From IMG/VR virus record IMGVR_UViG_3300045988_076381: DNA of 64,000 nucleotides; one strand, written 5' to 3'. Positions 3,473 to 50,147 of the stretch are shown here, one piece after another. Each line of letters opens with the position of its first letter. Within the stretch, counting starts at the first letter, position 1. The stretch comes from a virus. The translations under genes were made by a program, and so were the position numbers. A model generated the notes under the pieces. That model was not told the DNA's origin and searched no databases. It was given only the letters and a program-made list of their open reading frames with translations.

Positions 3473-4809
3473 CTATTTTCTTATATTTTCATATAAGTTA
3501 GACTATATCATTAACTTGTTATAAGTTTATTCAATATATTTAAACACAAACCCTTTACAATGTGAAGCAGTTCCTTTAAGAACCTTGCTAACATTAGCAT
3601 ATTGTTTTCTACATTCCCTAACAGTATCAAATGTTTCTAATAGATTTCCTTCAAAATCATATCTTCCTACTTTTCTTTTTTTACATGGATTGAAATTTTT
3701 GGGAATTTCTAATTTATCTACTTTCTCCCAAGACCAAAAGTATCCACCATAACTTTGATTTAGATTTATAGCATTAGATAATCTATTTTGTTTTAAATTA
3801 CAAAATTCCTTAGCTTCTTTAGAATTTTTAAAACTACGTAAAAAATTACCTTCTAAATCATACTGATAGATAGGGTCATTACTTCTTTTTCTTTCTTGAG
3901 ATTTTATTGGATAAACATCAAATTTTCTATCGGAAATATAATATTTAGATATTTTAGTTCCTAATTTTACAGCTTTCTGTATTGAACTAAGATTAACATC
4001 TAAGTATCTAGCTGTATCAGACATAGATTTAAATTCCATGAAAAATACTCCTTTAGAAGTATATAAATAAGTTGATTTCTTTTGTAAAATAGGTTTGTTA
4101 GACAGATCTAGTTTATCAACTTTTATATCAGACCAATAAAATTCTCCACTCATACTTCCATTCAATACTGCACGCCCAATTGCAGCTTCATGAATATGAA
4201 TATGATCAGATGCCTCTTTAATACTATTAAAAGATCGTAAATAGTTTCCGGATAAAGAATACTGGTATATAATTTTATTTAATAATGGAGGAGTATCTCC
4301 GCCTAATGTAATATTATATGTATCAGATCTTCCAATGAAATTTTCATTTACTAAAAATCTTTCAATATTTTCTGCTTCTTCTCTTGTATTACATATAAAT
4401 AATGTAACTCTAGAGAAAGCATCAAATCCGTATTTCTTAACAGCACTCTGAAAAGGAGTTTTTGGATGTAATATACTAGATGGTTTATATATATTTACCC
4501 CATTTCCCAAATATCCATCAAATTTATCAGGATTCTCTGTTTCGTGTATTCCAATATAAATTTTTCTGTTTTTATTATTTATCGTTAGGTATACTATAGT
4601 TTTCATATATTGTGTTTTTACTTATACATTAAGTTATTTCCCATTTCGGAAGTAGAACTTCCTACGTCTATCCAGACTAGTCGTTGAACCCAATTTTGGA
4701 GTTTACATAAGTCTTACATATCCCAAAACCTTGGCTGCTGATTAGCATGTAATATTTATATTATTTAGCTTTCCAGCAATTAGAGAAATTTATTTTTCTG
4801 CATATCACT
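3473..4809 (-). mobile_element. group I intron D carrying a GIY-YIG gene
   Basis: P at 4771-4781, Q at 4734-4743, R at 4678-4689, then ORF 3527..4606, S at 3500-3509, GNRA-capped hairpin. Ends at G3473. Confidence 0.75.
3527..4606 (-). CDS. GIY-YIG homing endonuclease (intron-encoded)
   Basis: N-terminal IVYLTINNKNRKIYIGIHET...GYLGNG...EAENIERFLV (GIY-YIG core). C-terminal repeats YQYxLxGNxLRSFxSxKEA are typical DNA-binding modules of I-TevI/Seg-like enzymes. Paralog of 6465..7547. Confidence 0.8.
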   Translation of the reverse strand: MKTIVYLTINNKNRKIYIGIHETENPDKFDGYLGNGVNIYKPSSILHPKTPFQSAVKKYGFDAFSRVTLFICNTREEAENIERFLVNENFIGRSDTYNITLGGDTPPLLNKIIYQYSLSGNYLRSFNSIKEASDHIHIHEAAIGRAVLNGSMSGEFYWSDIKVDKLDLSNKPILQKKSTYLYTSKGVFFMEFKSMSDTARYLDVNLSSIQKAVKLGTKISKYYISDRKFDVYPIKSQERKRSNDPIYQYDLEGNFLRSFKNSKEAKEFCNLKQNRLSNAINLNQSYGGYFWSWEKVDKLEIPKNFNPCKKRKVGRYDFEGNLLETFDTVRECRKQYANVSKVLKGTASHCKGFVFKYIE

Positions 4810-10812: not shown

Positions 10813-11586
10813 TTAAGCGTCTATTGTTAAATATTCTATAATCATTCTGGGATTATTGTAATCTATATTACCTTCTTGTATACCTCCGATTTGTAGTCCA
10901 ATAGAATCTAATGGGATAGCATTAACATTTCCAAAATCCCATAAAAGTGCTCTTATACTATTTGATTCATTGATATGATATAACTTATTATTTATATATT
11001 CTATTGCGAAAATATTAGCTTTTCCCATATCTCCTCCATATATTATAGGATGATTAATTGGATCAGCATTTCCATTAACGTCTTGTACTACTATTTTAAT
11101 TGTTGGGTTAGTAGTATCTGTACTTCTTAATATACTTAAATACTTTCTATCATTAGTATCTGATACTAAAAGAGTTAATAAACAATTATAAGAATTTTCA
11201 GAACTTCCAATAGCAGTAATAGTATATCTAAAAGAAACTCTCCAATTATTTTTTCGATTCTCGAATAGATTAGCTATTAATATAGATGAATAATCTTTCA
11301 TAAACATGGCTCCAGTGCTACTATGCGAAATTGCTCCTACTTTTCGAATAACTGAAGTAACAGAAGATGTAGTTGTATTAGATGCTCCATTATATAAAAA
11401 GATCCGAGATAATATTTTAATTATATCATCATCTGCTGGAAAATCATATAAACTATAACTACTAAGTGGAGTAGGATCGGCTCCAGAGAGAATAGCTCCA
11501 TCTTTATGTATAAAATTCATATTTGTACTACTAGGAGATCCTAATCTATTAGCAGCATCTTTAAAAGTTAAAAAATCCTTACTCAT
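10813..11586 (-). CDS. hypothetical tail-fibre-module protein
   Basis: 257-aa ORF, last gene of the fibre/RBD cassette. Confidence 0.5.
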   Translation of the reverse strand: MSKDFLTFKDAANRLGSPSSTNMNFIHKDGAILSGADPTPLSSYSLYDFPADDDIIKILSRIFLYNGASNTTTSSVTSVIRKVGAISHSSTGAMFMKDYSSILIANLFENRKNNWRVSFRYTITAIGSSENSYNCLLTLLVSDTNDRKYLSILRSTDTTNPTIKIVVQDVNGNADPINHPIIYGGDMGKANIFAIEYINNKLYHINESNSIRALLWDFGNVNAIPLDSIGLQIGGIQEGNIDYNNPRMIIEYLTIDA

Positions 11587-11590
11587 ATTT

Positions 11591-11905
11591 CTAAGTTTTA
11601 GTTCCGAATACTATCCAATCTATAGTTTTTGGATCTTTTCCTCCACTATACAATTCTATATATGTCTTTGTTACACCCATAACATTACAAGAATATCCAG
11701 CTTCATTATTTCCCCGAAATGAACATACAGCAGTTCTTGGTATATAATCTCCTTGTAACGATACTCTAGTTTCAGTATGTCCCTCACATAAAGTACTTCC
11801 TATCTCAAATACCAAAGGACCTAATGTCATGACTACATGACCTGGTCTAATTATATCATGTGTAGTCTCTAATATATTATCTAATTCCGTTATAAACTCC
11901 GCCAT
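11591..11905 (-). CDS. small receptor-binding-domain-like protein, paralog c
   Basis: MAEFITE... N-terminus, RGNNEAGY and GGKDPKTIDWIVFG motifs shared with 11943, 12224 and 12670. Resembles the C-terminal tip domain of tail fibres. Confidence 0.6.
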   Translation of the reverse strand: MAEFITELDNILETTHDIIRPGHVVMTLGPLVFEIGSTLCEGHTETRVSLQGDYIPRTAVCSFRGNNEAGYSCNVMGVTKTYIELYSGGKDPKTIDWIVFGTKT

Positions 11906-11942
11906 AATTGATTATTTACTGATAATCCTATTATTAAAAATG

Positions 11943-12221
11943 TTACAGTTTTATCATCTTTTCCCCCAGAGAAAATGTTACTCCTGTAGTATTTAAACTA
12001 GATATACTTATAGCATATCCTTGTTCATCATTATTTTTTAATGAAGCCATTCCGGTAATTATCCCACTAAATCCTTTTAATGGTACAGAAACAACATCAT
12101 ACCCAGGACAAGTAGTAGTTCCATAAGCGATTCGTAGTCCTTTATAATTTATATATGTAACAGGATCTACCATTTCCACGGAATAGTCCTCTAAATTATC
12201 TTCTGTTAAAAATTCAGCCAT
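11943..12221 (-). CDS. small receptor-binding-domain-like protein, paralog b (C-terminus displaced to -1 frame)
   Basis: MAEFLTE..., LKNNDEQGY. The annotated frame ends ...SLGEKMIKL*, but the family motif GGKDDKTVTFLIIG is encoded in the -1 frame from the G5A4 run (11963-11967) to the stop at 11890. Confidence 0.55.
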   Translation of the reverse strand: MAEFLTEDNLEDYSVEMVDPVTYINYKGLRIAYGTTTCPGYDVVSVPLKGFSGIITGMASLKNNDEQGYAISISSLNTTGVTFSLGEKMIKL

Positions 12222-12223
12222 AT

Positions 12224-12517
12224 TTAATCACTTTCTCCTATTATTAAATAATAAAATTCTTTAGGATCTTTCCCTCCGAGTATGAAAATAGCCGAGGTAT
12301 TAGTATAAGAGGATAAATTTACTGTATAACCTGCTTCATTATTATTTTTTAAACAACAGAATACTCCATATACTGATTTAAATCCGGAATAAGTAATTGT
12401 TATACCTCTACTAGTTATAGAAGAATATCCTCCAACCATTCTGAGTCCTAAACCTTCAATCCCTCCAGATCCAGTAGAATCTAAAGCTCTATCGTCTACA
12501 GTTAGATATTCTGCCAT
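12224..12517 (-). CDS. small receptor-binding-domain-like protein, paralog a
   Basis: MAEYLTV..., LKNNNEAGY, GGKDPKEFYYLIIG. Confidence 0.6.
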   Translation of the reverse strand: MAEYLTVDDRALDSTGSGGIEGLGLRMVGGYSSITSRGITITYSGFKSVYGVFCCLKNNNEAGYTVNLSSYTNTSAIFILGGKDPKEFYYLIIGESD

Positions 12518-12518
12518 A

Positions 12519-12659
12519 TTATATTATTTTAGCTCTTTGTTTTAATCGATGTACATCATCTTCTAAAGATTGGATTTTGTCTTTTATTATATTTAATTCT
12601 AAGGAATCTTTTTTAATAAAGATTCTATGTAAAAATGTTTTAATTTTATTTAGTAACAT
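12519..12659 (-). CDS. short coiled-coil ORF (46 aa)
   Basis: ATG at 12659, MLLNKIKTFLHRIF...LEDDVHRLKQRAKII. Its stop overlaps the ATG of 12517. Below the track's size cutoff. Confidence 0.3.
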   Translation of the reverse strand: MLLNKIKTFLHRIFIKKDSLELNIIKDKIQSLEDDVHRLKQRAKII

Positions 12660-12669
12660 ATTAATTTAA

Positions 12670-13008
12670 TTAATATCCTATAGCTAACCAAAAAAATTCA
12701 CTTCTGGTATTTACTGGAGGAGTTCCTACTAATTCTACTGTACATGAGGAATTTGTGAAGGATTTGATGGTTAAAACATCTCCTTTAGACCAATGACCAT
12801 AATAATTATTAGGAGTGAGTTGCACTACACAGCATTTAGTAGGAAATGTTTTTGGATACGATACTGTTGCAGTCATACTTCCAGTATTAAAGTTACTAAG
12901 TCCTGACTGAATTAATATCCCCCCCCCTTGTAAGATATCTGCTCTTGTAGGAGCTGCTTTAGAGAATAAGGTATTTAAATTATCTCTGGTTATAAATTCC
13001 TTTGCCAT
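12670..13008 (-). CDS. small receptor-binding-domain-like protein, paralog d (contains G9 tract)
   Basis: MAKEFITRDNL..., YPKTFPTKCCVV..., FFWLAIGY C-terminus typical of fibre tip domains. In-frame G9 (plus-strand C9 at 12919-12927) encodes GGG. Confidence 0.6.
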   Translation of the reverse strand: MAKEFITRDNLNTLFSKAAPTRADILQGGGILIQSGLSNFNTGSMTATVSYPKTFPTKCCVVQLTPNNYYGHWSKGDVLTIKSFTNSSCTVELVGTPPVNTRSEFFWLAIGY

Positions 13009-13038
13009 TTATTAATATTTTATTTAATTGTTATATAT

Positions 13039-13911
13039 TTATGTTAATTTTTTATATGTATTTCCACTTCTAATTAATTCTGTCCACCATATATCTCCTT
13101 TATAATTGATGAGTTCTGGAAGAATTCCTACAAGTCCAAACTCTTTTACCTCACTGTGGGCATAAATATCAAGTAAATAAGGATATGATTTTTGGTTAGG
13201 TATAGACATACTTATACATTTATTACTTCCATATATTAAACATCTCACAAAAAACCTTGTAATAACTTCTCTAGAAGGAATAGGATATGTTTGTTGCCAT
13301 GACGTGCGCCAATCCCAAGTATTACTAATTGTTATATAATTCTGACCATTCTCATCTATATACCATGTACTGTACCGACCTGTATCTTCTTTAGTAAGAA
13401 CTTGAGAATACATAGTAGGACTAACATCCTTTCCTTTAGTATAAGAACATGAATCGTTAGTCTCATTTACATATAATCTAGCTACACTCCTATACGTTTC
13501 TCCAACATCAAAATACGCATAATGATAATTATCAATTTTCTCTACATAAAAAAAAGATCTTGGGTATTTAAAATTACTACCAGTATAAGCAGCTATAGCA
13601 GTGAGAGTATTATTAGATGTATTTAATTTATATATTCTGAATTGCGTATCAGCATCTGGAGAAGATCCACTACAACAAAATAGATAATTACCTGATAAAG
13701 CCGAAGTAGCTATATTATACCAATATCCAGTAGAACCACCCAGAGATATAGGTGTAGTAACCATTGTACCATTAACCACAACTCCGAAAGTGATATGTTT
13801 AAAATCGGAAGCTGCATAAACAAACGGAATTCTTTCATCATCAGGATTTGCTACAACACCTATACGACAATAGACACTTCTGTAGAAAGAAAATCGTTTA
13901 AAACCTGCATA
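13039..13911 (-). CDS. fibre-module protein, frame open about 44 codons upstream of its first start codon
   Basis: Track ORF 13039..13779 uses a GTG. The same frame is open back to 13911 with no ATG/GTG/TTG and overlaps ORF 13860..14045 in the -1 frame. Confidence 0.55.
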   Translation of the reverse strand, partial: YAGFKRFSFYRSVYCRIGVVANPDDERIPFVYAASDFKHITFGVVVNGTMVTTPISLGGSTGYWYNIATSALSGNYLFCCSGSSPDADTQFRIYKLNTSNNTLTAIAAYTGSNFKYPRSFFYVEKIDNYHYAYFDVGETYRSVARLYVNETNDSCSYTKGKDVSPTMYSQVLTKEDTGRYSTWYIDENGQNYITISNTWDWRTSWQQTYPIPSREVITRFFVRCLIYGSNKCISMSIPNQKSYPYLLDIYAHSEVKEFGLVGILPELINYKGDIWWTELIRSGNTYKKLT

Positions 13912-14045
13912 TTATCAATAGACTTTTGTACTTTCGATAGAGGTATGAATTCCATAGAAGAATACGAAGTTAATAAATCCTCTCTTGCTCCTCCGGAGAT
14001 TGCCTGAATTTTAGCTACAAATTCAGACCCCCCCCCCACCTCCAT
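13860..14045 (-). CDS. 61-aa ORF, probable upstream (zero-frame) part of a -1 frameshift gene
   Basis: ATG GAG GTG G9 UCU... starts 33 nt after the fibre gene stop. Contains a G10 tract and an in-frame U_UUA_AAC. Confidence 0.45.
   Translation of the reverse strand: MEVGGGSEFVAKIQAISGGAREDLLTSYSSMEFIPLSKVQKSIDNMQVLNDFLSTEVSIVV
13896..13902 (-). other. candidate -1 programmed frameshift heptamer U_UUA_AAC
   Basis: Minus strand GUU UUA AAC = codons 48-50 of ORF 13860..14045. A -1 slip gives UUU AAA CGA, exactly the frame of 13039..13779. A possible hairpin (CUACA...UGUAG) lies 10 nt downstream. Confidence 0.5.
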
Positions 14046-14078
14046 TTATAGAAGATCCTAAAATATTATTTGTTTGTG

Positions 14079-16463
14079 CTATAGTAGCAAATTCTTCTGA
14101 CATAATTCTTTTAAATTACTTATTTCCTGTTCTAAATATTTTATTTTTTTCTCAAATTCTTTCTGAGATTTAATTCTTAAATTATATTCCTCTTTTAAAG
14201 CCTCTTGAAGAAGGATTGTATATCTTTCATATGAAAATGTTAAAATAGAATTATTTATTTCTTTTACAAGCTCTGGATAATATTTATTCCAGTATTGAGC
14301 TGAGGTTCCTATACATAAATCATTCTCGTCCATCCAATTATATTTAAATCCGGGAGAATTTAATACTAAAGATAATGTATTAGATAAATTCTCTATATTA
14401 TGCTTGTATCTAATATCAGATACAGAAGTTGTTCCAGCTCCATTTGTATGAACAGTATGTTTTGTGAAAGTGATTTCGTCAAGACTATTAATCTTAGCCA
14501 TTATTGTTTCAGGTGTTTCTCCGGAAGAATTCATTAATGTATCTACATCAACCCTTAAACTAAGAATATTCTGTTGTAATGGAACTAAATCAGATAGATA
14601 AGATATTTCATTATCTCCCCATGTAATCCTTCTATTAAAAGTGCTAGGTATATTAAACACGTTATTAGTCCCCTCTTTATTTGGAATCCATACTCGAAAA
14701 TCAGTATCCATACCTAGTATCGACCAGTTTATTTCTTTTGTAGAAGGTGCAGATAATTTAAGCATTCCGTTTATCTCACAATCTCCTTTTAATCTTATAT
14801 ATCTACAATACACTTTTTCAGAATAGACTCCGTATATATCAGAACCTAATAAAGTATCAAAATATATAGGATCTCTAATACCTTCTAAACACCCTAATCT
14901 TAATCTAGGAGATAAGGGTGTAACTTCATCATTTATACCTAAATAAGATTTATCTAAACATTCTCCAGTCTTAGGATTTGTTTCTCTAATACTATGTAAA
15001 TATAAAGAATCTTGAGTTTTTAAATATAAAATATCCCCAACTTCTGGAAGTTTTTCTAATTCTCTCTTTCTTTCCTCATCAGTAGTTTTATCTAAATACT
15101 CTTCTAAATCCTTATCTAAAACATTCCCATCGATAGTAGCAACTATATTACATCCAGAAATTGTAAAAGTACCCTCATCATAAATCCATTCTAATTTTTC
15201 AATCTTAATTCTTCCTTTAGATATTATTTTAGTAGTAGGAATTAAAGTACTTACATCAATCCCTTCCTCAGAATTTTCTGGGATTTCTACATTATATCCA
15301 TAAGAATGCTTCTCAAAATATAAATAATCTCCTATTTTTATATTATAAATCCCATTTATAGATATCTCATATTTAATAGGAATAACTTCTCCAGATTCTC
15401 CAGATTCTTCTTCATCAGGAACTATTTCAGATATACTAGATACAATTCCTTGTGGTTCAAAGAAATAATTAGTATTTAATCCTCTAGTAATAAAATCCTT
15501 CTCTTTAGATGAACTATCCCCAAACGGGCCTTTAGCAGAATTTCTCACTATTAAATTATCTACTTCTAAAGTCCACTCTGAATTTATATTCTCTAATCTA
15601 TATCCAGCCATTCCCTCTATGAAATTATCAGATATTATTCCAGAATTAAGAACAGCTTTATCTTTCACATATATATTTCCATCTACCTCAAAATTATAGT
15701 TATAAGTTGGGGGATATCCTATAGATATATATTTTCCATTTATATATGTGATACCTTCTTTAGAATTAAATTTAATTCCAGAAGTATTAGTATCTAAAAC
15801 TATTTCATTATTATTAACTACTATATTTAAATAATCTTGTTGATTTTTTACCTGCAACCCGTTTGGACCAATTACATTAAGATCTCCGGACCCATGGAGA
15901 TTATTTTCTAAATTAATAGTCACTTTATCTTTAACTATTCCTCCAGAGGATAGATTTAGATATAATTCTACTAAAGTTCCATTGTTATTATAGTAATGAA
16001 CTTTATCATCAGAATTAAAATAAACAAAATCAGTAGGTAAGATTGCAATATTATCTTGGTTATCTATAATAACTTTTAAATTCCTTTGAGCAGTTCTGAT
16101 TTGTTCTAGAGTAAGATTTTGATTATAATTGATAGCTAAATAATCCTCAGAAGTTTCTACGTCGTCTCTATTAGATAATATTGGATATAGCACTCCATTT
16201 ATTTGAAAATAAATTGAATCTTCTGATTTTACAAAATACCAACCATCAGCAGCTCCTATATCATTTTTATTCTGAACAATATTTATACTATTAGTATCAT
16301 CAGTAGTCTTACATACCTTTCCATTAGAAATAAGATCTAAAAAAGAATTTCCGAATCTAACTTTTATATTACCTTTTCCATTAAGAATAATATCAGTATC
16401 AGCAGATCCTACCATTAAATATGGCTTTCCTAGAATCTTTTCTACTTTAATAAGTTCTCCCAT
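14079..16463 (-). CDS. tail fibre/spike with C-terminal S74 intramolecular chaperone domain
   Basis: 794 aa. C-terminus TSVSDIRYKHNIENL...FKYNWMDEND...GTSAQYW...FSYERYT matches the autoproteolytic chaperone domain of endosialidase-type fibres and is followed by a coiled coil. Confidence 0.8.
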   Translation of the reverse strand: MGELIKVEKILGKPYLMVGSADTDIILNGKGNIKVRFGNSFLDLISNGKVCKTTDDTNSINIVQNKNDIGAADGWYFVKSEDSIYFQINGVLYPILSNRDDVETSEDYLAINYNQNLTLEQIRTAQRNLKVIIDNQDNIAILPTDFVYFNSDDKVHYYNNNGTLVELYLNLSSGGIVKDKVTINLENNLHGSGDLNVIGPNGLQVKNQQDYLNIVVNNNEIVLDTNTSGIKFNSKEGITYINGKYISIGYPPTYNYNFEVDGNIYVKDKAVLNSGIISDNFIEGMAGYRLENINSEWTLEVDNLIVRNSAKGPFGDSSSKEKDFITRGLNTNYFFEPQGIVSSISEIVPDEEESGESGEVIPIKYEISINGIYNIKIGDYLYFEKHSYGYNVEIPENSEEGIDVSTLIPTTKIISKGRIKIEKLEWIYDEGTFTISGCNIVATIDGNVLDKDLEEYLDKTTDEERKRELEKLPEVGDILYLKTQDSLYLHSIRETNPKTGECLDKSYLGINDEVTPLSPRLRLGCLEGIRDPIYFDTLLGSDIYGVYSEKVYCRYIRLKGDCEINGMLKLSAPSTKEINWSILGMDTDFRVWIPNKEGTNNVFNIPSTFNRRITWGDNEISYLSDLVPLQQNILSLRVDVDTLMNSSGETPETIMAKINSLDEITFTKHTVHTNGAGTTSVSDIRYKHNIENLSNTLSLVLNSPGFKYNWMDENDLCIGTSAQYWNKYYPELVKEINNSILTFSYERYTILLQEALKEEYNLRIKSQKEFEKKIKYLEQEISNLKELCQKNLLL

Positions 16464-16531: not shown

Positions 16532-16560
16532 AAAAAAAAGAAGAGAATCCCTTCTCTTCT
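16532..16560 (-). terminator. rho-independent terminator
   Basis: Minus strand AGAAGAGAA-GGGA-UUCUCUUCU followed by U8, 15 nt after the stop of 16575..17270. Confidence 0.6.
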
Positions 16561-27562: not shown

Positions 27563-29796
27563 TTTCCAAAATTTACTTCGTTATTTCTAGGATTGTTATC
27601 AAATAATTGTGCCCATTCAATATCAGCTTTCTTTTCTTCAATCTTATTTCTCTCTTTATCATTTTCATCTTTAGATTTAGCAGTAAACCATTTAATAGAG
27701 GAATCTTGTTCTTTTTGTTTTAGATTTTCTACTTCTTTAATAGATTTTTGCAATTCCTCTTGAAGTTGCTGTATCTGTTGTTGAGCTTCTTTAAGAGCTT
27801 GATCATATTGCTGTATCTGCTGTTGAGCTTGTTGTATTTGATTATTCTCCTCTTTTTGACGTTTAATTGCGTCTAATGTTATTTGTTTATATTCTGTGAT
27901 ACTCTTACATCCAATAGCTTGTACTAATACATCAGCTGTTAATTGTCCCGATTTAATTAACTCAAGATTATATGCTTTTATAGTTTCTAAGTCTTGTAAA
28001 GCGGATTGAGTATCAGCAATATTTATATCAAAGTCTGTTACTGTATAATGTTCTGGAAGTGCTGTGAAAATAGCTTTTTGTTTCTCTCCAAGAATTATAG
28101 TTCCTTGAAATCCATCTTTATATACTACTTTAGCTATATTTAAACTATCTAAGAATAATTCTCTTAAAGCTAATGCCATGTTAGAGAAGTATATTTTTGT
28201 GACAATTAGTGATTGATTAATTCCGGTTCTAACATTAGTAACAGCATCTCTAGTTTCAACTCCTCCAATAGCTTCTCTAAATGCTCCTGTTATATTAGAT
28301 GCGAGTTGTTCTATTTTTTCTATAGCTAAATCTAGAGCTTGCATTGATTGGTAGGATAAACTCATATCATATGTATTAAATACAGCATTTGGCATAGATT
28401 GTCCAGCCTCACTTTGGGAAGTATCTAATGCTGCGAATCCTTGTTTTACATACGCCATGAATTTAAGTAATCTGTTTGTTTCATCTTCCTCGTCTAAGAA
28501 TGTGGGGATTTTAGAGAAATCTACTGCAATACCTTTTGTCCCACTTACTGCAATGGCATTATTTCGAAGGAAAAATAGTATATTATACATATCTTGCAAA
28601 TCTGCTGTAGCTAATACTAAACTAAACGGGATATTTTGTCTCGTTGTCATAAATAACCCATTAACAGATAATGTACATTCCTTAGGATTATCCATAGATC
28701 TAACTACATTTAAATCTACATCCCTAACAATATAAATATCACTAGCAATTTTAACTACAGAGTATCTATGCATTACACCATCTTTTCCTGTCTCTATATA
28801 TTCTACCTCATATACAGTAATTAATCTATTATTATATCCATACATTCCAGTATTCCCATCCCAAACAGGAGTTACCTCTAGTCCCCCTAATATTCCGGTA
28901 GCAAATTCCGAATCCTCTGTAGTAGCAGCATTTATTGGTCCGGTAGATCTTATTATATACTTCTGATTATCAGTATAATATGCCTTCTCTAATTCATCTC
29001 TTAACTTAGTTTTATCAGCTTCTGTTAATTCTGAATTATATTTAGATAAGATCTGATCTACTGTCATGTAATATCTACAAACAGCTCTAGGAGATTTATT
29101 TAAATAATAACTATTAGGATTTTTCTCCACAAAAGTATTAATAGGATTTAATCCTTCTATATCCACATTATTCCCACTTCTAGAAGGTTGTGTTTTAAAA
29201 TAAAGTGTTCCGGAGATTAATAAATCCGTCATTAATAATCTAGCTTTTATATCTAAATCAATACTTTTAGATTGAGATAAATATGTTATAATATTCTGTG
29301 CTGCTATTTCATATTCAGAAATAAAATTTTTATCTATATCTTCCTTTAATAATTGTAGAGACTTTTCAGTTAGAGGATCTTTTGTTATAGGAGTATTCTG
29401 ATCTCCGAATTTAGAGAGAATAGTATTATATAAATTACTCATATATAATTCCCTAACTCCATCTAATACTTTAAGCTGTCTCTCTCTATTTATTAAAGAT
29501 AATGTCTTTTGATCTTTACATGTAATTTGCATATTTAATGGAGCATCTAGAAACTTCCCAACTAAATAATCTATGTGCTTTTTTATAAGTGGTATAAATT
29601 GTATTTGTGTCGGAGTTCCTATTCCATAATTTTCTTCGAAATGCTTATATTGATCTAAATCCATCTTCCCGTGATAGTAGTTATAAGCTTTTCTTATCGC
29701 TACTTTATCATACACGAGATCAGAAATAGCTTGATTAGCCTTCTGAATTTGATAGTCTTTTGATCCTCGTTTGTACTCGACGCTCATCCAAATCAA
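27559..29796 (-). CDS. putative portal protein
   Basis: 745 aa, about 260 nt downstream of the large terminase (a 108-aa ORF, 29735..30061, spans the gap). Gln-rich coiled coil near the C-terminus. Based on size and position, no motif-level proof. The real start is possibly Met4. Confidence 0.55.
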   Translation of the reverse strand: MIWMSVEYKRGSKDYQIQKANQAISDLVYDKVAIRKAYNYYHGKMDLDQYKHFEENYGIGTPTQIQFIPLIKKHIDYLVGKFLDAPLNMQITCKDQKTLSLINRERQLKVLDGVRELYMSNLYNTILSKFGDQNTPITKDPLTEKSLQLLKEDIDKNFISEYEIAAQNIITYLSQSKSIDLDIKARLLMTDLLISGTLYFKTQPSRSGNNVDIEGLNPINTFVEKNPNSYYLNKSPRAVCRYYMTVDQILSKYNSELTEADKTKLRDELEKAYYTDNQKYIIRSTGPINAATTEDSEFATGILGGLEVTPVWDGNTGMYGYNNRLITVYEVEYIETGKDGVMHRYSVVKIASDIYIVRDVDLNVVRSMDNPKECTLSVNGLFMTTRQNIPFSLVLATADLQDMYNILFFLRNNAIAVSGTKGIAVDFSKIPTFLDEEDETNRLLKFMAYVKQGFAALDTSQSEAGQSMPNAVFNTYDMSLSYQSMQALDLAIEKIEQLASNITGAFREAIGGVETRDAVTNVRTGINQSLIVTKIYFSNMALALRELFLDSLNIAKVVYKDGFQGTIILGEKQKAIFTALPEHYTVTDFDINIADTQSALQDLETIKAYNLELIKSGQLTADVLVQAIGCKSITEYKQITLDAIKRQKEENNQIQQAQQQIQQYDQALKEAQQQIQQLQEELQKSIKEVENLKQKEQDSSIKWFTAKSKDENDKERNKIEEKKADIEWAQLFDNNPRNNEVNFGK

Positions 29797-30061
29797 TTTT
29801 TTGTCCTACGAAGTATCTAGTTAGATTTAAACCTCGAAGGTGTAGTTCTTTCTTTATTTTTTCTAAAAACTTCTCTTTACTATCACATTGGATATATATA
29901 CATAAAGGAGTTAGGTAATCTTCTGTTATATACATTTTAAGTATATAACCATCCTCTGTTTTAATTATATCCATTGATTTATTATATATCGCCCCATATA
30001 ATTCTAATATGTATTCTTTAATCATACATATTAAATATTCTTTTTCAGTCGTATTAATCAT
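29735..30061 (-). CDS. hypothetical protein
   Basis: 108-aa ORF between terminase and portal. Confidence 0.5.
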   Translation of the reverse strand: MINTTEKEYLICMIKEYILELYGAIYNKSMDIIKTEDGYILKMYITEDYLTPLCIYIQCDSKEKFLEKIKKELHLRGLNLTRYFVGQKIDLDERRVQTRIKRLSNSEG

Positions 30062-30234
30062 ATACTGAATCTGTTCTAGATATTAATACTTTTAAATCCT
30101 CAGGAATTCCATCATCTGTAGGTATTTTTCCAAAATGTTTTACTCCATTAGAATCATAATAATATCCTATTTTACTTATTTTAATTTTTTTCTTCTTCTC
30201 ACCAATTCCTCCTAGTAATCTTAGTTCTTGATCG
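30054..30234 (-). CDS. terL: terminase large subunit, exon 4 of 4 (assignment tentative)
   Basis: A 60-codon open frame that is in frame with exon 3 only if the intron ends at G30235 (AU+C=Ile: ...AAMGI-DQELRLL...). Confidence 0.5.
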
Positions 30235-30515
30235 CCCATTTCGCACCATATTTGTTATCTATAAGGCTTTTTATCCTTATATTCTTATAATTTCTTATAA
30301 GCTCAGCATATATTTTCATCTTATATTTAAATAAGATGTTCCGCACTCGTGGAAGGATTATTACTCTCATTAACGTTCACCTTCTATGCGTTACAATGGC
30401 TAACGATGTTTTAGCTTATCTCGGTATTAGCATGGTATTTAAACTTTAACTTTCACCGATTTTGCGGAATTATTTTATTACCTTAAATTTCTTTAAGGAG
30501 GGACATGCAAGGTCT
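30235..30515 (-). mobile_element. group I-like intron T3 (ORF-less, second family)
   Basis: P1 GGGAU/GUCCC with U30516.G30504. P2 CCUUAAA-GAAA-UUUAAGG. P3 UUCCGCA/UGCGGAA. J3/4 AAA. P4 UCGGUG/UACCGA. 3' end ...GAAAUGGG. Confidence 0.65.
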
Positions 30516-31534
30516 ATCCCCATTGCAGCGATAATATCAAACTTCCTCTTATTCTCATAAGAATAATCCTTTAACTCATTTAACATCTCTATACAATCAA
30601 TTCTATCCCAGAATTCATTAACATAATCCTGAATAAGTTCAAGATAATACTCAATAACTCTTTTTGAGGGATAAATACCGTACATACTAGAATTTAAAGA
30701 TTTCTTCTTAGATACATCTGTACTATTCGGAGATTGTAATTTTTTCATTAATAAATATTGTTTTCCTTTATCCTGAAAATAACTTACAATAGCTGTTCTG
30801 GAACTTTCTAATACTGCTTTTGCTCCATACCATTCTAATAATAGAATTGTCTGATTATAAGCTGTTCTAATATTCTCAGGCCTATCTTTATATATAGCTA
30901 CATATTTATTTCCATCAAGTCCATAATTCCTCTTCTTTATAACTAAACAGAAATCAGATGTATCCTTCTGCCCAGTAGACTGATCAATACCTTGGTCAAT
31001 AGAGTCAATTCCAGCAACATAAAGATTAGGTATTAAATCACCATTCTCATCTCTTATAGGCTCTTCAAATATTTTAACTTTACCATTAGGAGAAGAGATG
31101 AATTTAATATTATCTCTACCTCCATCTGTGGCTAAAGCAAGTATACCAATTTTTGGTTTTATTCCGTAGCCATGAACTTCTATATCTGTTAATCTTTGTG
31201 CGATTAAATTCTGATTGAACATATTATCTCCTTTCCTAGATAAAGCTTCTTGGAAAGTCCAACAATACTCTGCACAATGTACCATATAAGCAAAGGGATC
31301 ATTTGAGTATCTTTGACGTTCAATCATTAAAAATTCTTCTGCTTTCTTACGTATTGTAACTCCTCGATTATCTATTATCCCAGGTTGCATTACTATGGCA
31401 GTAGATGGGATAAAGTATGCTGTATAGACTGTACGATTATCTGAGGAGTGATTATGTTTATATGGTAAGATTCCGAAGGAAATTGGATCAAGAAACATCC
31501 GTTCTAGTCCTTCTAAAGATGGACCACTATCTCC
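30516..31534 (-). CDS. terL: terminase large subunit, exon 3 of 4
   Basis: Nuclease-domain part (LYVAGIDSIDQG..., ...KFDIIAAMG). The track start (GTG at 31537) is really the intron 3' end. Confidence 0.75.
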
Positions 31535-31818
31535 CACTTTGTTATCTCTAGAGCTTTTTATCTCTAGATTCTTACACTTCTTAATTTATGTAAGGTCAGC
31601 ATATATTTTCATCTGTTCTAGATGTCGAACACTCGTGGTAGGATTATATTTATTCACCTACTATGCGTTACAGTATCAATTAACCTTTCGCAATTTAATT
31701 GATTACCTCGGGATTGGCATCACAGCTTTCCCCGATTTTGCTCGATTTTCTCAATGAAGATTCCTCTTCAAGCCGGCAAAATTTTATATTTTCTTTCTAA
31801 ATAAATACTGGAATATTT
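31535..31818 (-). mobile_element. group I-like intron T2 (ORF-less, second family)
   Basis: P1 CCGGU/GCCGG with U31819.G31777 and a 41-nt L1. P2 UGAAGA-GGAA-UCUUCA. P3 UCGAGCA/UGUUCGA. P4 UCGGGG/UCCCGA. Ends ...AAAGUG. Confidence 0.65.
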
Positions 31819-35040: not shown

Positions 35041-37020
35041 TTAAAATATTATAGGTTTATTTTCTTCTTCATATTTCCGGAGAATTAACTGCTTTTTATA
35101 GTATTTAAGCATCTTCTCTATATCAGATTTTAAATATTCTAGAACATACTCATTAACTTCACCATCGTGAGTAAAGTGAACAATTCTTAGCTCATCAATA
35201 ATTAAATCCGGATTTTGTTTTTGAAGCATCCATGCGTAAAGAGATAATTGAAGAGTATAATGTAAGAAGTTACAATCCATTATATTATTTAAAGGGTATT
35301 TCATCATTTGATACTTCTTCTTTTTAGGATCAAAATAGGATTTTTGTTTTAATTTCTTATTAGTATTATGTGTTGGAATCATAGAATATCCAAACAAAAA
35401 AGTATGAGAAGGACTATCTACTTCAATACATTGTGTTGGAATAGTATCTACTTTTTCTACAGATTTAATATTTCTATAATGATTCTTAGACCCATTAGAT
35501 AATTCAATATTTTGATTTCTAGTTAAAAAAGGGTTTAAATCATTACTAGAAAAACAAATATCATATCCTAGAAAAATTTTACCATCACACTTCTTTTTTA
35601 CATTAAATATTGTTCCTTTTAAACCTAAACTAGATATTAATTTAATTGTATCGTCTGCTTGCCATCTTTGAGTAGTTGACATTACAAATCTTCTCCTTTC
35701 TTTATGATAGTATCCGTCAGTATCCATCAGTCCTCTAAGAAGATCTAATCGTTGTTCAAATGAAGCCCTCAGATATATATCAGGAATATGTTTATATTCT
35801 AATACTCCTAATTGTTTTAGCTTTGTACGTAAACCATAAATTGTTTTACATTCTACATTAGCTCTATCTGGATTATGTTGAGCATTTTCTCCTATATCAT
35901 ATCCTCTAGATTTAATTTCTTCCCATAATGGAGAATCTTTTCTTTGAGTAATTAGTCCACATGATTTTGAACCGTCACCAAGCCAACAACCTAATACATA
36001 TGGATCTATAGGTAAATCTGCTTTTGGGAGATTTAAAGGTTTAGCATTAAGTATTTTTGGAAGTTCTTCTGATTTAATTTTTATTCTTTTTTCTTTTCTA
36101 TTATTTATATCTTCTAATAGATAATGTAATTCCTCAGTTGTCATTACTTTATTTGTATATTTTTTGTTTTTTAAGAAGGATATAAACCAACGATGTTCGT
36201 GATCTGCTATAATACTTTCAGAATTATCAAAAGTTATTTTATAACAAGGATTATAATGTATTTCAGATTTATGTACTACTTTAGTTATATTTCCATCCTT
36301 ATCAAAAATTTCTTCTCCTTCTTTAATATCCTTTATAGTTGTCCATCCAGATTTAGTTGCAATTGGCGTGTCTAAAGGTAATCCTTTCCAGTCCCATACT
36401 TTGATATGATTTCCATTTTTAATAATTAAATCAGATTGTCCAGCAATACGTAACATTCCTTCTGGATCTATATAAGAAATTAACATTTCCGGTATAATTC
36501 CTGTATCTATATCTAAATTATGATGATTTTTATATACAGGAATAGTTCCTCCTAAATTAAATCTCTTAATCATTTTCTCAGCATGATTATAAAATCCAGT
36601 TTCTTGTTCTGCATGTATCTCAGTACCATACTCACAAGCTATCCTATTTGTTTCTCCCCAATCTTTTACATATTTATTACAAGTCTCTTCAAATACTTCT
36701 TTTGTAATACTATCTGGAATATAAGAATCATCCCATTTTTTAGTATTTAATAAAGAACTCTTTACATTAATAAAATCATTTCCCATTAACTCTTCTAACG
36801 CCTTATACTTCTTCCAAAAATCTGAATCAAACTTATTCTCGAACTCTCCAATTAAAGTAGTTACAGAAATAAATTTTTTTCCTTCACCTACTCCCTTTTT
36901 ACCTACATACACATGTTTCTCATCATTGTATGTAACATCATCGTTTTCCTTATCGACGATTAAATCATTACCATCGAAGGAGAAGTATTTAACATCTCCT
37001 TCATTCATACTCATAGTCAT
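35041..37020 (-). CDS. PD-(D/E)XK (RecB/Cas4-like) nuclease interrupted by an intein
   Basis: Extein motifs GTEIHAEQE, GQSDLII, VWDWK|T (DxK-T) and YTLQLSLYAW. About 340 aa of Hint+LAGLIDADG sequence is inserted between K212 and T553. Confidence 0.7.
   Translation of the reverse strand: MTMSMNEGDVKYFSFDGNDLIVDKENDDVTYNDEKHVYVGKKGVGEGKKFISVTTLIGEFENKFDSDFWKKYKALEELMGNDFINVKSSLLNTKKWDDSYIPDSITKEVFEETCNKYVKDWGETNRIACEYGTEIHAEQETGFYNHAEKMIKRFNLGGTIPVYKNHHNLDIDTGIIPEMLISYIDPEGMLRIAGQSDLIIKNGNHIKVWDWKGLPLDTPIATKSGWTTIKDIKEGEEIFDKDGNITKVVHKSEIHYNPCYKITFDNSESIIADHEHRWFISFLKNKKYTNKVMTTEELHYLLEDINNRKEKRIKIKSEELPKILNAKPLNLPKADLPIDPYVLGCWLGDGSKSCGLITQRKDSPLWEEIKSRGYDIGENAQHNPDRANVECKTIYGLRTKLKQLGVLEYKHIPDIYLRASFEQRLDLLRGLMDTDGYYHKERRRFVMSTTQRWQADDTIKLISSLGLKGTIFNVKKKCDGKIFLGYDICFSSNDLNPFLTRNQNIELSNGSKNHYRNIKSVEKVDTIPTQCIEVDSPSHTFLFGYSMIPTHNTNKKLKQKSYFDPKKKKYQMMKYPLNNIMDCNFLHYTLQLSLYAWMLQKQNPDLIIDELRIVHFTHDGEVNEYVLEYLKSDIEKMLKYYKKQLILRKYEEENKPIIF
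35365..36384 (-). mobile_element. intein with LAGLIDADG endonuclease, class-3-like (WCT)
   Basis: Block A GLPLDTPIAT (no Cys/Ser1), block B ADHEHRW, LAGLIDADG motifs LGCWLGDGS and LLRGLMDTDGY, block F TQCIEVDSPSHTFLF, block G MIPTHN followed by Thr+1. Confidence 0.65.
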
Positions 37021-45628: not shown

Positions 45629-45701
45629 GGTCCCATAGCGTAAAGGTTAACGCAAAACACTCATAATGTTGAGATTCTAGGTTCAAGTCCTAGTGGGACC
45701 A
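45629..45701 (+). tRNA. tRNA with CAT anticodon (Met or lysidine-Ile)
   Basis: Hand-folded cloverleaf: acceptor GGTCCCA/TGGGACC, D stem GCGT/ACGC, anticodon loop CTCATAA, T arm CTAGG-TTCAAGT-CCTAG. Confidence 0.85.
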
Positions 45702-45824
45702 CGATATTGATTTTCAGGATTTCTGAGGTTTAGAATTTCTGGATTAATGTTTTTTGTAATTTTTTTCATGATCAGTGTTTAACATTAGCAACATTTAATG
45801 AGATGTGATATCTCCTTCCTTATT

Positions 45825-45849
45825 AAGGAGAGTTAATACTCTCCTTTTT
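45825..45849 (+). terminator. hairpin terminator candidate
   Basis: AAGGAGAGT-TAAT-ACTCTCCTT followed by TTTT. Confidence 0.5.
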
Positions 45850-45965
45850 AAATTTGTTTATTATGAGAAAGATAGATATAAAATACATAATGACAATAAT
45901 AGGAATATTTATATTTCTATTATTATTATCTTCATTAGAATCAATCATTAATTCTATTTAAATAA

Positions 45966-46039
45966 GAGCGAATATCCAAATTGGTTAAGGGAATAGTCTG
46001 CAAAACTATATTGTGAGAGTTCGAATCTCTCTTCGCTCT
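45966..46039 (+). tRNA. tRNA-Cys (GCA)
   Basis: Acceptor GAGCGAA/TTCGCTC, anticodon stem ATAGT/ACTAT with loop CTGCAAA, T arm GAGAG-TTCGAAT-CTCTC. Confidence 0.85.
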
Positions 46040-46156
46040 CATTAAATATTATATTTAAAAGGTTATATTCGGAAATATATAAGAATGATATCTTTTAAAT
46101 ACTTTAAAATTATATTAATTAAAATAAATAAAAATAATCTTTTAAATATAATAATT

Positions 46157-46426
46157 ATGAAGATCGTGATTAATAGATCCGGAATTGGATTAAATCTATC
46201 TCTACCAGCTATAGAGTATTTAATTAAATATAAAGTAATTAAGTCTCCATTAGATATGAGAAATATTAATAGGAGTAGCCCAAGATTGGTAAGATGTATC
46301 GAAGTATTAGGAGATAACGCATCTTTAGATATGTTAGAAACGATAACAGTTAGAGATGATTTTAAATATAAAATCTCTGAAATCCAAATAGGTAACATCC
46401 ATAGAGAAATTATCCTCATGGAGTAA
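46157..46426 (+). CDS. hypothetical protein
   Basis: ATG at 46157 (MKIVINRSGIGLNLS...) inside track ORF 46085..46426. Preferred over the low-complexity antisense ORF 46063..46419. Confidence 0.45.
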   Translation: MKIVINRSGIGLNLSLPAIEYLIKYKVIKSPLDMRNINRSSPRLVRCIEVLGDNASLDMLETITVRDDFKYKISEIQIGNIHREIILME

Positions 46427-46594
46427 GATATTTACATATGTAAATCTAATTAGTGTACAATAATTAGATATTCCAAGCTCTACTGGTTACAGAGTATAAA
46501 TAAACCTAGATTTTTAGATTTCCAAATTGACCTAAAATCTAATATCTTAGGATTAGATATAAAATAAGCGTGGAATACTTATTGTTAAATCAAC

Positions 46595-46664
46595 TTCTTA
46601 GTAGTTTAACTGGTGAAAATGTCATATACAGTAGGAAATATTAGTTCGAATCCAATCTAAGAAG
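46595..46664 (+). ncRNA. tRNA-like element with unpaired anticodon arm (pseudo-tRNA?)
   Basis: Acceptor TTCTTAG/CTAAGAA, U8-A9, D arm GTTT-AACTGGTGA-AAAT, T arm ATTAG-TTCGAAT-CCAAT. No 5-bp anticodon stem can be drawn in 46621-46639. Confidence 0.35.
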
Positions 46665-46710
46665 TGATAAAGAAACTCATATAATTCATATCTTAATATT
46701 AACCCGAAAA

Positions 46711-46796
46711 AAGGGCAACAGTAGGGTTGGGGTGGGTTCAGTGCCCTTGAGATAGTATCAAAATCAGCAATAATGCAGATGAGCTGTAACCACCCC
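46711..46796 (+). ncRNA. structured spacer RNA candidate (pseudoknot-like)
   Basis: AAGGGCA(46711-17)/TGCCCTT(46742-48). The loop sequence GGGGTGG(46729-35) is complementary to CCACCCC(46790-96), which is followed by TTTT. Confidence 0.3.
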
Positions 46797-46824
46797 TTTT
46801 ATTAATAATTTTGTTTATATTCTA

Positions 46825-46896
46825 TGCGAGATAGTGTAAAGGTAACATCCTAGGCTCATAACCTAGAGGATGGTGGTTCGAATCCATCTCTCGCTA
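46825..46896 (+). tRNA. tRNA with CAT anticodon, U1:U72 mismatch
   Basis: Acceptor TGCGAGA/TCTCGCT (first pair mismatched), D stem GTGT/ACAT, anticodon stem CTAGG/CCTAG with loop CTCATAA, T arm GGTGG-TTCGAAT-CCATC. Confidence 0.8.
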
Positions 46897-47132
46897 CTAT
46901 ATAATAGACTTCAGATATTTAACGCGGAATATAGAAGTTTGTTATATTTTATAATTATGCATGCTAATTATAAATCCCAACTCATCCTATGTCTAAGGGG
47001 AGTATAAATTAAAAGCAGATCCATCTTTTTGAGTTTGTATTGGTAATGAGAATAACTCTATAACTTAGAAATGTTATAAAACTTTCTTGAATTTAAGATA
47101 TAAGGTTTGGGAACTTACATCATTAAATTAAC

Positions 47133-47207
47133 TCCTCAGTAGCTCAGTTGGCTAGAGCAGCGGACCGTTAATCCGTAGGATCGTAGGTTCAAGTCCTACC
47201 TGAGGAG
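47133..47207 (+). tRNA. tRNA-Asn (GTT) with C at position 33
   Basis: Acceptor TCCTCAG/CTGAGGA, D arm GCTC-AGTTGGCTA-GAGC, anticodon stem GCGGA/TCCGT with loop CCGTTAA, T arm GTAGG-TTCAAGT-CCTAC. Closely parallels the E. coli tRNA-Asn layout. Confidence 0.8.
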
Positions 47208-47651
47208 CATAATAAAGAGTGTAGTACTAGTGTAGGACTCAACGTAACTTATAGGTTTTGTATTGTACATATAAATTTAGTCCTATTGGGTGTCGTATAA
47301 CCCAACTTAGCTATCGAGTACGGTTAATGATAGCATTTTTATCGAACTTTCATAAAAATAATTATATGAGAAACAAGCATTATTTCCTAATAGATTAATC
47401 TGATAAACCGTATATTGGAGTTGATACACTTATAATTGTCTAATGCAGCTTCGTATTATAAGAAGCAAGTCAATATAAGAAATCAGTTCAGAATAATGTA
47501 TTGTATTCGACGTGGGATTTAAAATTGTATTTATGTGATAGATGTATAGAGAGAAGATTAAGACGGAAAATATCTGGAGAAGATCTAATTCCAAATGATC
47601 CTGTTAATAATTTATATATACAAATATGTCTAGATTTATAATTTATTAATT

Positions 47652-48035
47652 ATGAAAAAGAGAGAACTCCCAAAAGAAGTAAAGAGATGGATTAAATTTT
47701 TTATAAAAACTAATGCTTATTATAATTTTGATTGGGCATTTATGTTAGATGTAGAAAAAGAGAAATTAACTCAATGTATTAAATTTTTTACTGATAACGG
47801 ATGTCATATTAATAATTCCAGAATAATTTCGAAGATGCAATTGGCTGTGAGATTATTAGATATTGCTAGGGATGAGGATTTAGATTTTAAAGGTTATGTA
47901 AATACTAAGAATATAAATAGATTTATTTCTATAGATAAATATGATATTGATATTCTCCCAACTCTTCGAACTGAAAAAGCGTGGTATTTATATAATAAAT
48001 TAAGATATTATTATATGAAAGAATGGTGGGATTAA
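47652..48035 (+). CDS. hypothetical protein
   Basis: 127-aa ORF embedded in the tRNA cluster. Confidence 0.55.
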   Translation: MKKRELPKEVKRWIKFFIKTNAYYNFDWAFMLDVEKEKLTQCIKFFTDNGCHINNSRIISKMQLAVRLLDIARDEDLDFKGYVNTKNINRFISIDKYDIDILPTLRTEKAWYLYNKLRYYYMKEWWD

Positions 48036-48044
48036 ATATATTAT

Positions 48045-48130
48045 GCTAGAATGGTGAAATTGACAGACACTCAGGACTTAAAATTCTGTGGATAGTAATA
48101 TCCGTGTGGGTTTGAATCCCACTTCTAGTA
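48045..48130 (+). tRNA. tRNA-Leu (TAA), long variable arm
   Basis: Acceptor GCTAGAA/TTCTAGT, anticodon stem CAGGA/TTCTG with loop CTTAAAA, variable arm TGGATAGTAATATCCG, T arm GTGGG-TTTGAAT-CCCAC. Confidence 0.85.
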
Positions 48131-48422
48131 CTATCTAGATGTAGCAAAATCAGTGAAGTTAAATACAGAAATACGCTTCGTAAGAGAACCTGTAGTCCTT
48201 AAAGGATAGTGGTGACACTGAGCCAATCTATTTATATAGAAGGTGAGATTCCAAAAACTACAATATTTATAGGGAATCAATCATATAAGAAATTATATGA
48301 AATCTCTGATAATCTATAGTGCCTTATAGAAAAACAGGGGATGAAGTTAAGGCACAAACTTCATTGGGATATATTCCCGGCGAAAGAGATTTTATATATC
48401 TCTGGATCTGATTATTTAATAG

Positions 48423-48485
48423 TACTTTGTGCATCGGATGCACTCCGAGGGATGTGAGGTTAAGGTTCGACTCCTTACAAAGTGC
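48423..48485 (+). ncRNA. truncated tRNA-like element (acceptor + T arm)
   Basis: TACTTTG/CAAAGTG acceptor and TAAGG-TTCGACT-CCTTA T arm. Only about 29 nt lie where the D and anticodon arms should be. Confidence 0.3.
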
Positions 48486-48515
48486 CTAAGTAGTAATTAT
48501 TTAAATATTCATATT

Positions 48516-49415: not shown

Positions 49416-49693
49416 ATAAAGTAGGTAATACTTAAATCCATTTGGATGGAGGTATTTTTATATGTATAGATTATATATATAATAAAATTTAGCTAAATAA
49501 TATAGACGATAATATAAACTATTAATGCGAAAGAATCCTCAAAAGATGTTTTTATTTAAATAAATATACTTATTTAAATATAAACTATACTCCTCTTTCT
49601 GTCTTAACCTTAGTCCTTGAGAGGATTCTTGCCCTTGACATATTCTTTGGCTGTATTTATATAATCTATACATAACTATTTTTAATAAACATT

Positions 49694-49764
49694 TGTCCTA
49701 TAGTATAATGGTAATACATCTGGTTTTGGTCCAGAGAATTGAGGTTCAAATCCTCGTAGGACAA
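49694..49764 (+). tRNA. tRNA-Gln (TTG)
   Basis: Acceptor TGTCCTA/TAGGACA, D arm GTAT-AATGGTA-ATAC, anticodon stem TCTGG/CCAGA with loop TTTTGGT, T arm TGAGG-TTCAAAT-CCTCG. Confidence 0.85.
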
Positions 49765-50147
49765 CAATTCTATAATGGGAATTTTTAGATTGATTATTTC
49801 TTATAGAAAAGTCTGGACAAATTTTGTTTGGACTTTTCTTTTCATTCAATAGATATTGAAAAATTCGAAAACATATGATAAATTCTCCAAATAGTTATTT
49901 AACTGAATATTATATAAATAAAGTTTTGTTTATATAACTCTTTAAAAGACTGTAAAATATTAAAATTTCAAAACTAAACGGATTCTATGGCTTATAAGTA
50001 GAATACCCCTTTCTGTCTATTTTATCAAGCCTAGATACTCTAAAACTATTTTTAAGTCAACTTCCAGATATGGTATGTTTGGACTATTATAGATTTTTGG
50101 AGTTCTAGGCTTTTTTATTTTCATTTTTCAAACTCGGATTTTCAAGT

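Follow-up and report, generated by a model that had tools for sequence, protein, structure and literature searches.

The question raised by this locus is whether a run of ten consecutive G residues in the tail-fibre region of an uncultured gut phage (roughly 165 kb, 28% GC) is a length-variable switch acting on a surface protein, or whether it reflects chance, gene decay, recoding or error. In the window (the whole stretch of 64,000 nucleotides analysed here, GC content 28.7%), the plus strand at the focal tract reads CCCCCCCCCC, a C10 run that is G10 on the coding minus strand. A preliminary description, made from the sequence before any comparison with other genomes, had placed this run directly after the start codon of a frameshift gene, as a candidate for slipped-strand ON/OFF switching or transcriptional slippage, and in the ON frame. 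We consider it likely that G10 is a hypermutable contingency tract, changing length by slipped-strand events, located towards the 5′ end of a gene for an accessory receptor-binding or tail-fibre protein. In support of the earlier proposal, the run is non-random, its length varies, stops follow within 2–4 codons in the wrong frames and it lies in a fibre cassette; the position immediately after a start codon did not survive comparison with relatives.

Relatives and comparison of alleles

Relatives were gathered by protein, by tract-flanking DNA patterns and by exact-protein look-ups; about 180 contigs bore homologues. All comparisons are between assembled consensus genomes, no pair of which is isogenic genome-wide. 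Duplicates aside, the cassettes are at most 98% identical to one another, and pairs of tracts were compared by their near-identical flanks; at the scale of the cassette, no isogenic genome pair differing in the tract alone was found. Tract length was counted between the conserved anchors TTAGGATCTTCTATA and CTGAAT, for which the in-frame distance is 19 nt.

The G10 run is real and non-random

Read on the minus strand from the ATG at 14045, the sequence is ATG GAG GTG GGG GGG GGG TCT, and the preliminary description was literally correct in placing G10 just 3′ of an ATG from which a 61-aa ORF is open. Its judgement that such a run is improbable by chance also holds, with 0.0003–0.005 C runs of at least ten expected per window (0.00035 if bases are independent and identically distributed, 0.0045 if they follow a first-order Markov chain). 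The 64 kb contain just two G/C runs of six or more, namely the focal C10 and a C9 on the same strand in the adjacent paralogous gene, and both sit inside the fibre cassette (Table 1). A/T runs of 5–8 number in the hundreds in the window, and GGG accounts for 11.6% of the Gly codons of the genome.

The window lies within contig k99_146551 of ENA ERZ27261765 (165,736 bp), a short-read k-mer assembly. A second, separately built assembly, Logan ERR1137566_916, matches the window without a difference over 2627 nt that include G10, the 61-aa product and the deletion at 13882 considered below, which shows that G10 is not the artefact of one assembler. The run is confirmed as real and non-random.

Table 1. 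Features of the fibre cassette and of the focal tract, in window coordinates
Feature	Position	Strand	Remarks
Further cassette genes with the M[AS]xEF[IL]T N-terminal motif	10813..12517	-	257, 104, 92 and 97 aa
92-aa paralogue (MAEFLTEDN...)	11943..12221	-	C-terminus truncated by G5
Third G tract	11963..11967	-	near 3′ end of the 92-aa paralogue; G5 here
112-aa gene	12670..13008	-	Pfam Gp53-like_C tail-fibre C-terminal domain; tract at junction of N-terminal motif and domain
G9 tract of the neighbouring fibre-tip gene	12919..12927	-	QGGG, in frame, ON here; G7-G12 in relatives
C-terminal coding segment, frame A again	13039..13911	-	~290 aa; predicted beta-propeller
61-aa ORF, frame B	13860..14045	-	mid-part of the ancestral gene; ends early via the deletion at 13882
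1-nt deletion, strain-specific, outside the tract	13881..13884	-	second frameshift; TCTACCAGAAG in relatives, TCTACAGAAG here
T_TTA_AAC heptamer, frame B	13896..13902	-	incidental; also in relatives needing no shift
Native 5′ end of the gene, frame A	14023..14103	-	N-terminus conserved in L005 and P0002/P0009/P0010; ends at the TGA that results from G10
G10 homopolymer, focal tract	14028..14037	-	part of Gly5-6 linker; 1 nt above in-frame G9
794-aa tail fibre	14079..16463	-	C-terminal Peptidase_S74 intramolecular chaperone domain; directly upstream of the focal gene

Position of the tract within the native gene

The native start of the focal gene is the ATG at 14103 (MSEEFATIAQ...), which is conserved in relatives and overlaps the 3′ end of the upstream fibre gene. 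Counted from this start, the tract occupies codons 22–25, and not codons 3–6 directly after a start codon as had been claimed, and it encodes a Gly5-6 linker between the N-terminal motif and the predicted beta-propeller domain. The ATG at 14045 is formed by a native-frame Asn codon, AAT, together with the following G, and the same AAT is found in in-frame relatives (104602, P0002 and P0009). The 61-aa ORF that begins there is no gene of its own; it is the middle of the focal gene read from an incidental start.

Three-frame translation from ATG 14103 yields MSEEFATIAQTNNILGSSINGGGGGV in frame A and then, right behind the tract, TGA at 14023–14025, after which frame A is open again from 13911 to 13039. 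Relatives, among them Dulem virus 41 (PP511520.1) and genomes from IMG/VR, ENA and Logan, carry one uninterrupted ORF of 351–363 aa which, when aligned to the window, corresponds to frame A in its N-terminus, to frame B in its middle and again to frame A in its C-terminus. The N-termini of P0002, P0009 and P0064 (MSEEF/MAEEFATIAQTNNILGSSINGGGGGS) are what the window would encode if the tract were G9, the in-frame length. With G10 the sequence reads GGG GTC TGA, a stop two codons on, and with G8 or G11 it reads ...CTG AAT TTG TAG, a stop after four codons, so that a gain or loss of one nucleotide at the tract entails early termination in both other frames. These nearby stops fit a slipped-strand ON/OFF reading. 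The native frame reaches TGA because G10 is 1 nt too long, and the focal gene of the window, as judged from its reading frame, is thus OFF, the reverse of the ON state assigned to it earlier.

Joining of the 61-aa ORF to the 246-aa ORF by an altered G-tract length was ruled out by four stops in the frame of the second ORF between the tract and 13911. Reassignment of a stop codon for read-through in frame A was rejected as well, the stops in question being a mixture of TGA and TAA.

A second frameshift confined to this strain

Further downstream, ORF 13860..14045 is split from ORF 13039..13779 by the loss of one nucleotide at 13882 (coding strand CC to C). At this site relatives have a TCTNCCAGAAG-like sequence with one base more than the window, and the deletion was seen in none of the ~30 relatives aligned; since it is present in this strain only, it does not represent a programmed shift. 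What had been called a frameshift gene is therefore a gene with a strain-specific deletion. Another 1-nt deletion, independent of this one, affects the focal gene in ERZ28659473 (L031). With both G10 and the deletion at 13882 in place, a single slip, or indeed any one change in a tract, would be unable to restore the full protein in this strain.

It could be argued that full-length protein is nevertheless obtained by recoding, either through transcriptional or +1 ribosomal slippage on G10 or through a −1 shift at U_UUA_AAC, since ten identical bases can support slippage of RNA polymerase or of the P-site tRNA, and since T_TTA_AAC is a canonical X_XXY_YYZ heptamer with the appropriate zero frame (frame B) 14 nt upstream of the deletion. 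Such a rescue is highly improbable. It would require two independent events, and the two-frame layout is not conserved, all relatives having the extra base and a single ORF; the stop behind the tract lies two codons off and not in the A site. The heptamer occurs equally in relatives that need no shift, and no stimulatory structure was found 3′ of it (MFE −17.2 kcal/mol versus a shuffle mean of −17.4, z = 0.06). As for programmed transcriptional slippage, there is a run of suitable length, but run lengths vary and the DNA of most relatives is already in frame. Programmed −1 frameshifting at U_UUA_AAC is ruled out by the single-ORF relatives, by the occurrence of the heptamer where it is not needed and by a downstream fold no stronger than that of shuffled sequences.

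Allele variation at the focal tract

De-duplication left 23 distinct alleles at the focal site; the frame is kept in 14 and lost in 9, in each case of loss through a length change inside the G-rich stretch. ON alleles include forms with 19 nt between the anchors (GGTGGAGGTGGAGGTGGAT, which has no tract; GGT-G8-A-G6-T; GGTGGAGGT-G9-A; GGT-G11-A-G3-T) and one with 16 nt (GGT-G8-A-G3-T). OFF alleles include forms with 20 nt (GGTGGAGGT-G10-A; AATGGAGGT-G10-T, the allele of the window; GGT-G9-A-G6-T; GGT-G5-A-G10-T; GGT-G6-A-G5-A-G3-T), with 18 nt (GGT-G5-T-G8-T) and with 27 nt. Comparison of related genomes, which the preliminary description had proposed as a check, thus revealed different lengths, with ON and OFF alleles on identical or near-identical flanks. 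L004, L020 and L050 match one another at all 385 flanking nt and yet carry G10A, G9A and G9AG6T, respectively; L014 and L042, with G8 and G9, show 2 mismatches in 630 flanking nt. Where gene calls in the Logan and ENA assemblies place the start within the tract itself (MGGGGGSEF, MVGGGSEF and similar), the allele is likewise OFF, and the corresponding N-truncated proteins (P0027, P0031, P0032, P0061 and P0066–P0071) come from independent assemblies.

In stretches 97–99% identical to the window, indels of 1–2 nt occur at 0–1 per 4 kb and are clustered at the three G tracts and the 13882 deletion, and the hundreds of A/T runs are essentially stable between relatives; together these observations argue against generic homopolymer error. 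Several sequencing platforms are liable to errors in long G runs and the data are consensus contigs, and an artefact of sequencing or assembly, with miscalls producing both G10 and its length variation, would be a natural concern. It has very little to recommend it, however, given that the contig of the window was assembled from short reads by k-mers and that its G10 and deletion recur in the independent Logan assembly, that A/T runs of 5–8 are almost free of indels, and that the variants, drawn from GenBank, IMG/VR, ENA and Logan, include base interruptions (G8AG6, G5TG8). Long-read homopolymer noise in particular is ruled out by the short-read origin of the window's contig and by the stability of the A/T runs. 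The only A/T homopolymer found to vary among close relatives is an intergenic T8 run at 16532, which is T7 or T9 in two of them.

In many relatives the focal linker is interrupted and non-slippery (GGTGGAGGTGGAGGTGGA), and the G tract is therefore not a conserved feature of the focal gene. Eight contigs with the identical intact protein P0010 also have the same neighbouring gene products, which indicates that within a strain the consensus state is rather constant. In L009, TCTATAAATA-G7-AGAGGGAG (3932–3938) is found 5′ of a version of the focal gene that has another N-terminus, and it resembles what is left of the focal tract region; N-terminal and C-terminal modules may thus have recombined at the Gly tract.

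Neighbouring tracts and the fibre cassette

Six consecutive genes (10813–14103) have M[AS]xEF[IL]T-like N-termini. Their 97-, 92/110- and 104-aa products are paralogues (E-values 1e-10 to 1e-15); a relationship was also seen between the 112-aa and 97-aa proteins, and the 257-aa protein has its first ~90 residues in common with the focal protein. G tracts are present in three paralogues of this one cassette and nowhere else in the 64 kb.

The G tract of the neighbouring 112-aa gene has no interruption in any of its 23 alleles despite divergence of its flanks, with lengths of G7–G12 that leave 12 alleles ON and 11 OFF. Dulem virus 41 (G12) and IMG 177824 (G10) differ here in tract length with 0 mismatches over 350 flanking nt, and it is because of G12 that the homologue in Dulem virus 41 is annotated in GenBank as two CDS. 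The third tract is G5 in the window and in ERZ28659473, G6 in seven alleles and G11 in one (OHEX01001257); the G5 state shortens the paralogue from 110 to 92 aa, with loss of the conserved GGKDxK...IIG C-terminus.

The 257-aa gene (ORF 10813..11586) has a T6 run at codons 4–6 (11570–11575), which is T7, and out of frame, solely in IMG 072084 / ERZ28638702. A poly-T switch in this gene was ruled out, T7 being restricted to one strain and hence a lineage-specific frameshift and not a hypervariable site. In SRR30938714 the same gene is split at another site, into 82 and 164 aa.

These data bear on the possibility that a fragile G-rich linker lies in a dispensable, decaying gene, the OFF alleles being steps in pseudogenisation and not states of a selected, reversible switch. 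Ordinary frameshifts in the focal gene, at 13882 outside the tract here and independently in ERZ28659473, fit relaxed selection as well as switching, and the mixed-codon linkers of many relatives and the stable consensus state across eight contigs of one strain can be read in the same way. Decay is nonetheless an unlikely account of the locus as a whole. In-frame and out-of-frame alleles are interspersed on near-identical flanks, which suggests repeated gain and loss; the neighbouring tract has stayed pure G in the face of both flank divergence and a strong codon bias against GGG; and three separate paralogues of this cassette have G tracts, against none in the rest of the 64 kb. A neighbouring tract that remains pure, and ON and OFF alleles that share their backgrounds, point instead towards maintained switching.

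Predicted structure and function of the focal protein

The focal gene is located directly after the Peptidase_S74 fibre gene and before the Gp53-like_C fibre-tip gene. Searches of PHROG and Pfam gave no match for its product. An AlphaFold2 model of the close homologue P0002 (pLDDT 79, pTM 0.80) opens with an N-terminal helix, is disordered at residues 20–25, which correspond to the Gly tract, and continues through a small helical region into a C-terminal domain that is all beta. A Foldseek search returned only generic beta-propellers (the prolyl oligopeptidase propeller, sialidases and kelch; TM 0.4–0.5), along with a 66%-identical uncharacterised protein labelled "CrAss-like virus". From the position of the gene and a generic propeller fold at these TM-scores, the product may bind a receptor or glycan, and the shared N-terminal motif presumably docks it on the virion.

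Sharing of the fibre module between phages

The window at 12670–13916 and Dulem virus 41 at 12841–14087 (PP511520.1) share a fibre module with 81% nucleotide identity. With IMG/VR contigs of 144–166 kb and a window contig of 165.7 kb, the genome size is put at about 160 kb, which sets Dulem virus 41 apart as a different phage. The crAss-like Dulem virus 41 (93 kb, 40% GC) has only this 1.2-kb module in common with the window and was absent among the matches listed in a tblastn search with the window's portal, a protein that is ~20% identical to crAss-like portals. That the module is common to an otherwise different phage with 40% GC suggests that the fibre module, with its polyG tract, has moved horizontally between phages. 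The only other long G run in Dulem virus 41 (L039) is a G10 at 28865–28874, near the 3′ end of the hypothetical CDS XCD04923.1 (28487..28951) and immediately ahead of the overlapping CDS 28948..30069, and may mark a further frameshift-prone junction. Bacterial genomes scanned for the pattern of the neighbouring tract, as a means of host identification, gave no matches.

Other features of the window

Two ORFs on the minus strand have similarity to the large terminase subunit: a 659-aa ORF (35041–37020) with terminase-large-subunit, PD-(D/E)XK and LAGLIDADG/Hom_end matches, and a separate 355-aa ORF (30470–31537) matching the C-terminal part of TerL. The terminase gene may be split, or interrupted by an intein or homing endonuclease. 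On the plus strand, six tRNA genes (Met x2, Cys, Asn, Leu-TAA and Gln-TTG) at 45629–49765 adjoin the point at ~44 kb where gene orientation and GC skew switch sign.

Proposed mechanism

Our results suggest how a contingency tract of this kind would operate. The product of the intact gene consists of four parts, in which a flexible Gly5-6 linker, written in some lineages as a near-pure G run, separates the N-terminal motif from a small helical region and the predicted beta-propeller domain. During replication of phage DNA, polymerase slippage would add or remove one G. A G9 template would be read through, G10 would lead to TGA after 2 codons and G8 to TAG after 4 codons, and progeny would consequently vary in whether they make the focal fibre protein. 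Slippage in replication as the cause of the variation, its reversibility, the incorporation of the protein into virions and an adaptive benefit in host range are elements that we infer from the sequences compared.

With G tracts of their own, the two neighbouring paralogues could extend this to combinatorial ON/OFF repertoires. The window would then represent one such combination, with the focal gene OFF (G10) and further disabled by the 13882 deletion, the neighbour ON (G9) and the third paralogue truncated (G5). We put forward, as a tentative extension that may well prove too broad, that the cassette constitutes a combinatorial phase-variable receptor-binding repertoire of at least three paralogous tip proteins, which share a docking motif, have their own polyG tracts in the linker or near the C-terminus, and belong to a module that moves horizontally between unrelated gut phages.

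Implications

The signature of a polyG switch is now seen in an abundant group of uncultured gut phages, at a time when contingency loci in phages, as a general idea, are a recent proposal. All three G tracts lie within the fibre cassette, about half of their alleles are out of frame, and at least one tract gene is shared with a crAss-like phage. If the tracts do switch, they would offer gut phages a simple means of matching hosts whose surfaces themselves phase-vary; if the repertoire is combinatorial, bet-hedging would require neither an invertase nor a diversity-generating retroelement. Annotation is affected as well. Gene callers split or truncate tract genes, as in the two CDS of PP511520 and the in-tract starts of Logan and ENA, and host prediction based on receptor-binding proteins can be expected to misread them.

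Comparison with known systems

Among bacteria, Campylobacter jejuni cj1421 and cj1422 are polyG genes subject to phase variation through homopolymeric tracts. The locus described here resembles them in having a tract near the 5′ end of an ORF, a product that is probably a surface-interaction protein and a mixture of ON and OFF lengths among strains, but the tract is viral and is replicated probably by phage enzymes. Phages are known to switch tropism by other routes, namely the invertible tail-fibre segments of Mu and P1 and the diversity-generating retroelement of Bordetella phage BPP-1. The outcome would be the same in the present case, alternative receptor-binding repertoires within one lineage, although the proposed mechanism is different.

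Contingency loci have been described in T2, T4 and a survey of BASEL phages, where homopolymers in ORFs undergo reversible frameshifts by polymerase slippage and are viewed as bet-hedging, and where repeats of at least 6 are under-represented in coliphage tail fibres (Gomez, Barrick & Waters, 10.1101/2025.10.21.683753). The concept of homopolymer frameshifting in phage ORFs is the same here. Unlike in the coliphage survey, long tracts are confined to the fibre cassette and lie far above the background length.

Campylobacter Fletchervirus phages are, to our knowledge, the only ones in which experiments have demonstrated switching of receptor-binding proteins by polyG tracts. The genes in question contain tracts of 7–11 G (Sorensen 2021, as cited in 10.1101/2025.10.21.683753). 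So far as these phages are characterised through that citation, the present cassette is similar in that G runs of 7 to ~11 lie inside probable receptor-binding or fibre genes and shift the frame by their length, that several tract genes occupy one putative receptor-binding region, and that the genomes are low in GC. It differs in belonging to an unrelated ~165-kb gut phage, in encoding proteins without detectable homology and in placing the tract in a Gly linker. By analogy, the focal tract is best regarded as probably working like the Fletchervirus tracts without being homologous to them, since lineage, proteins and tract position all differ.
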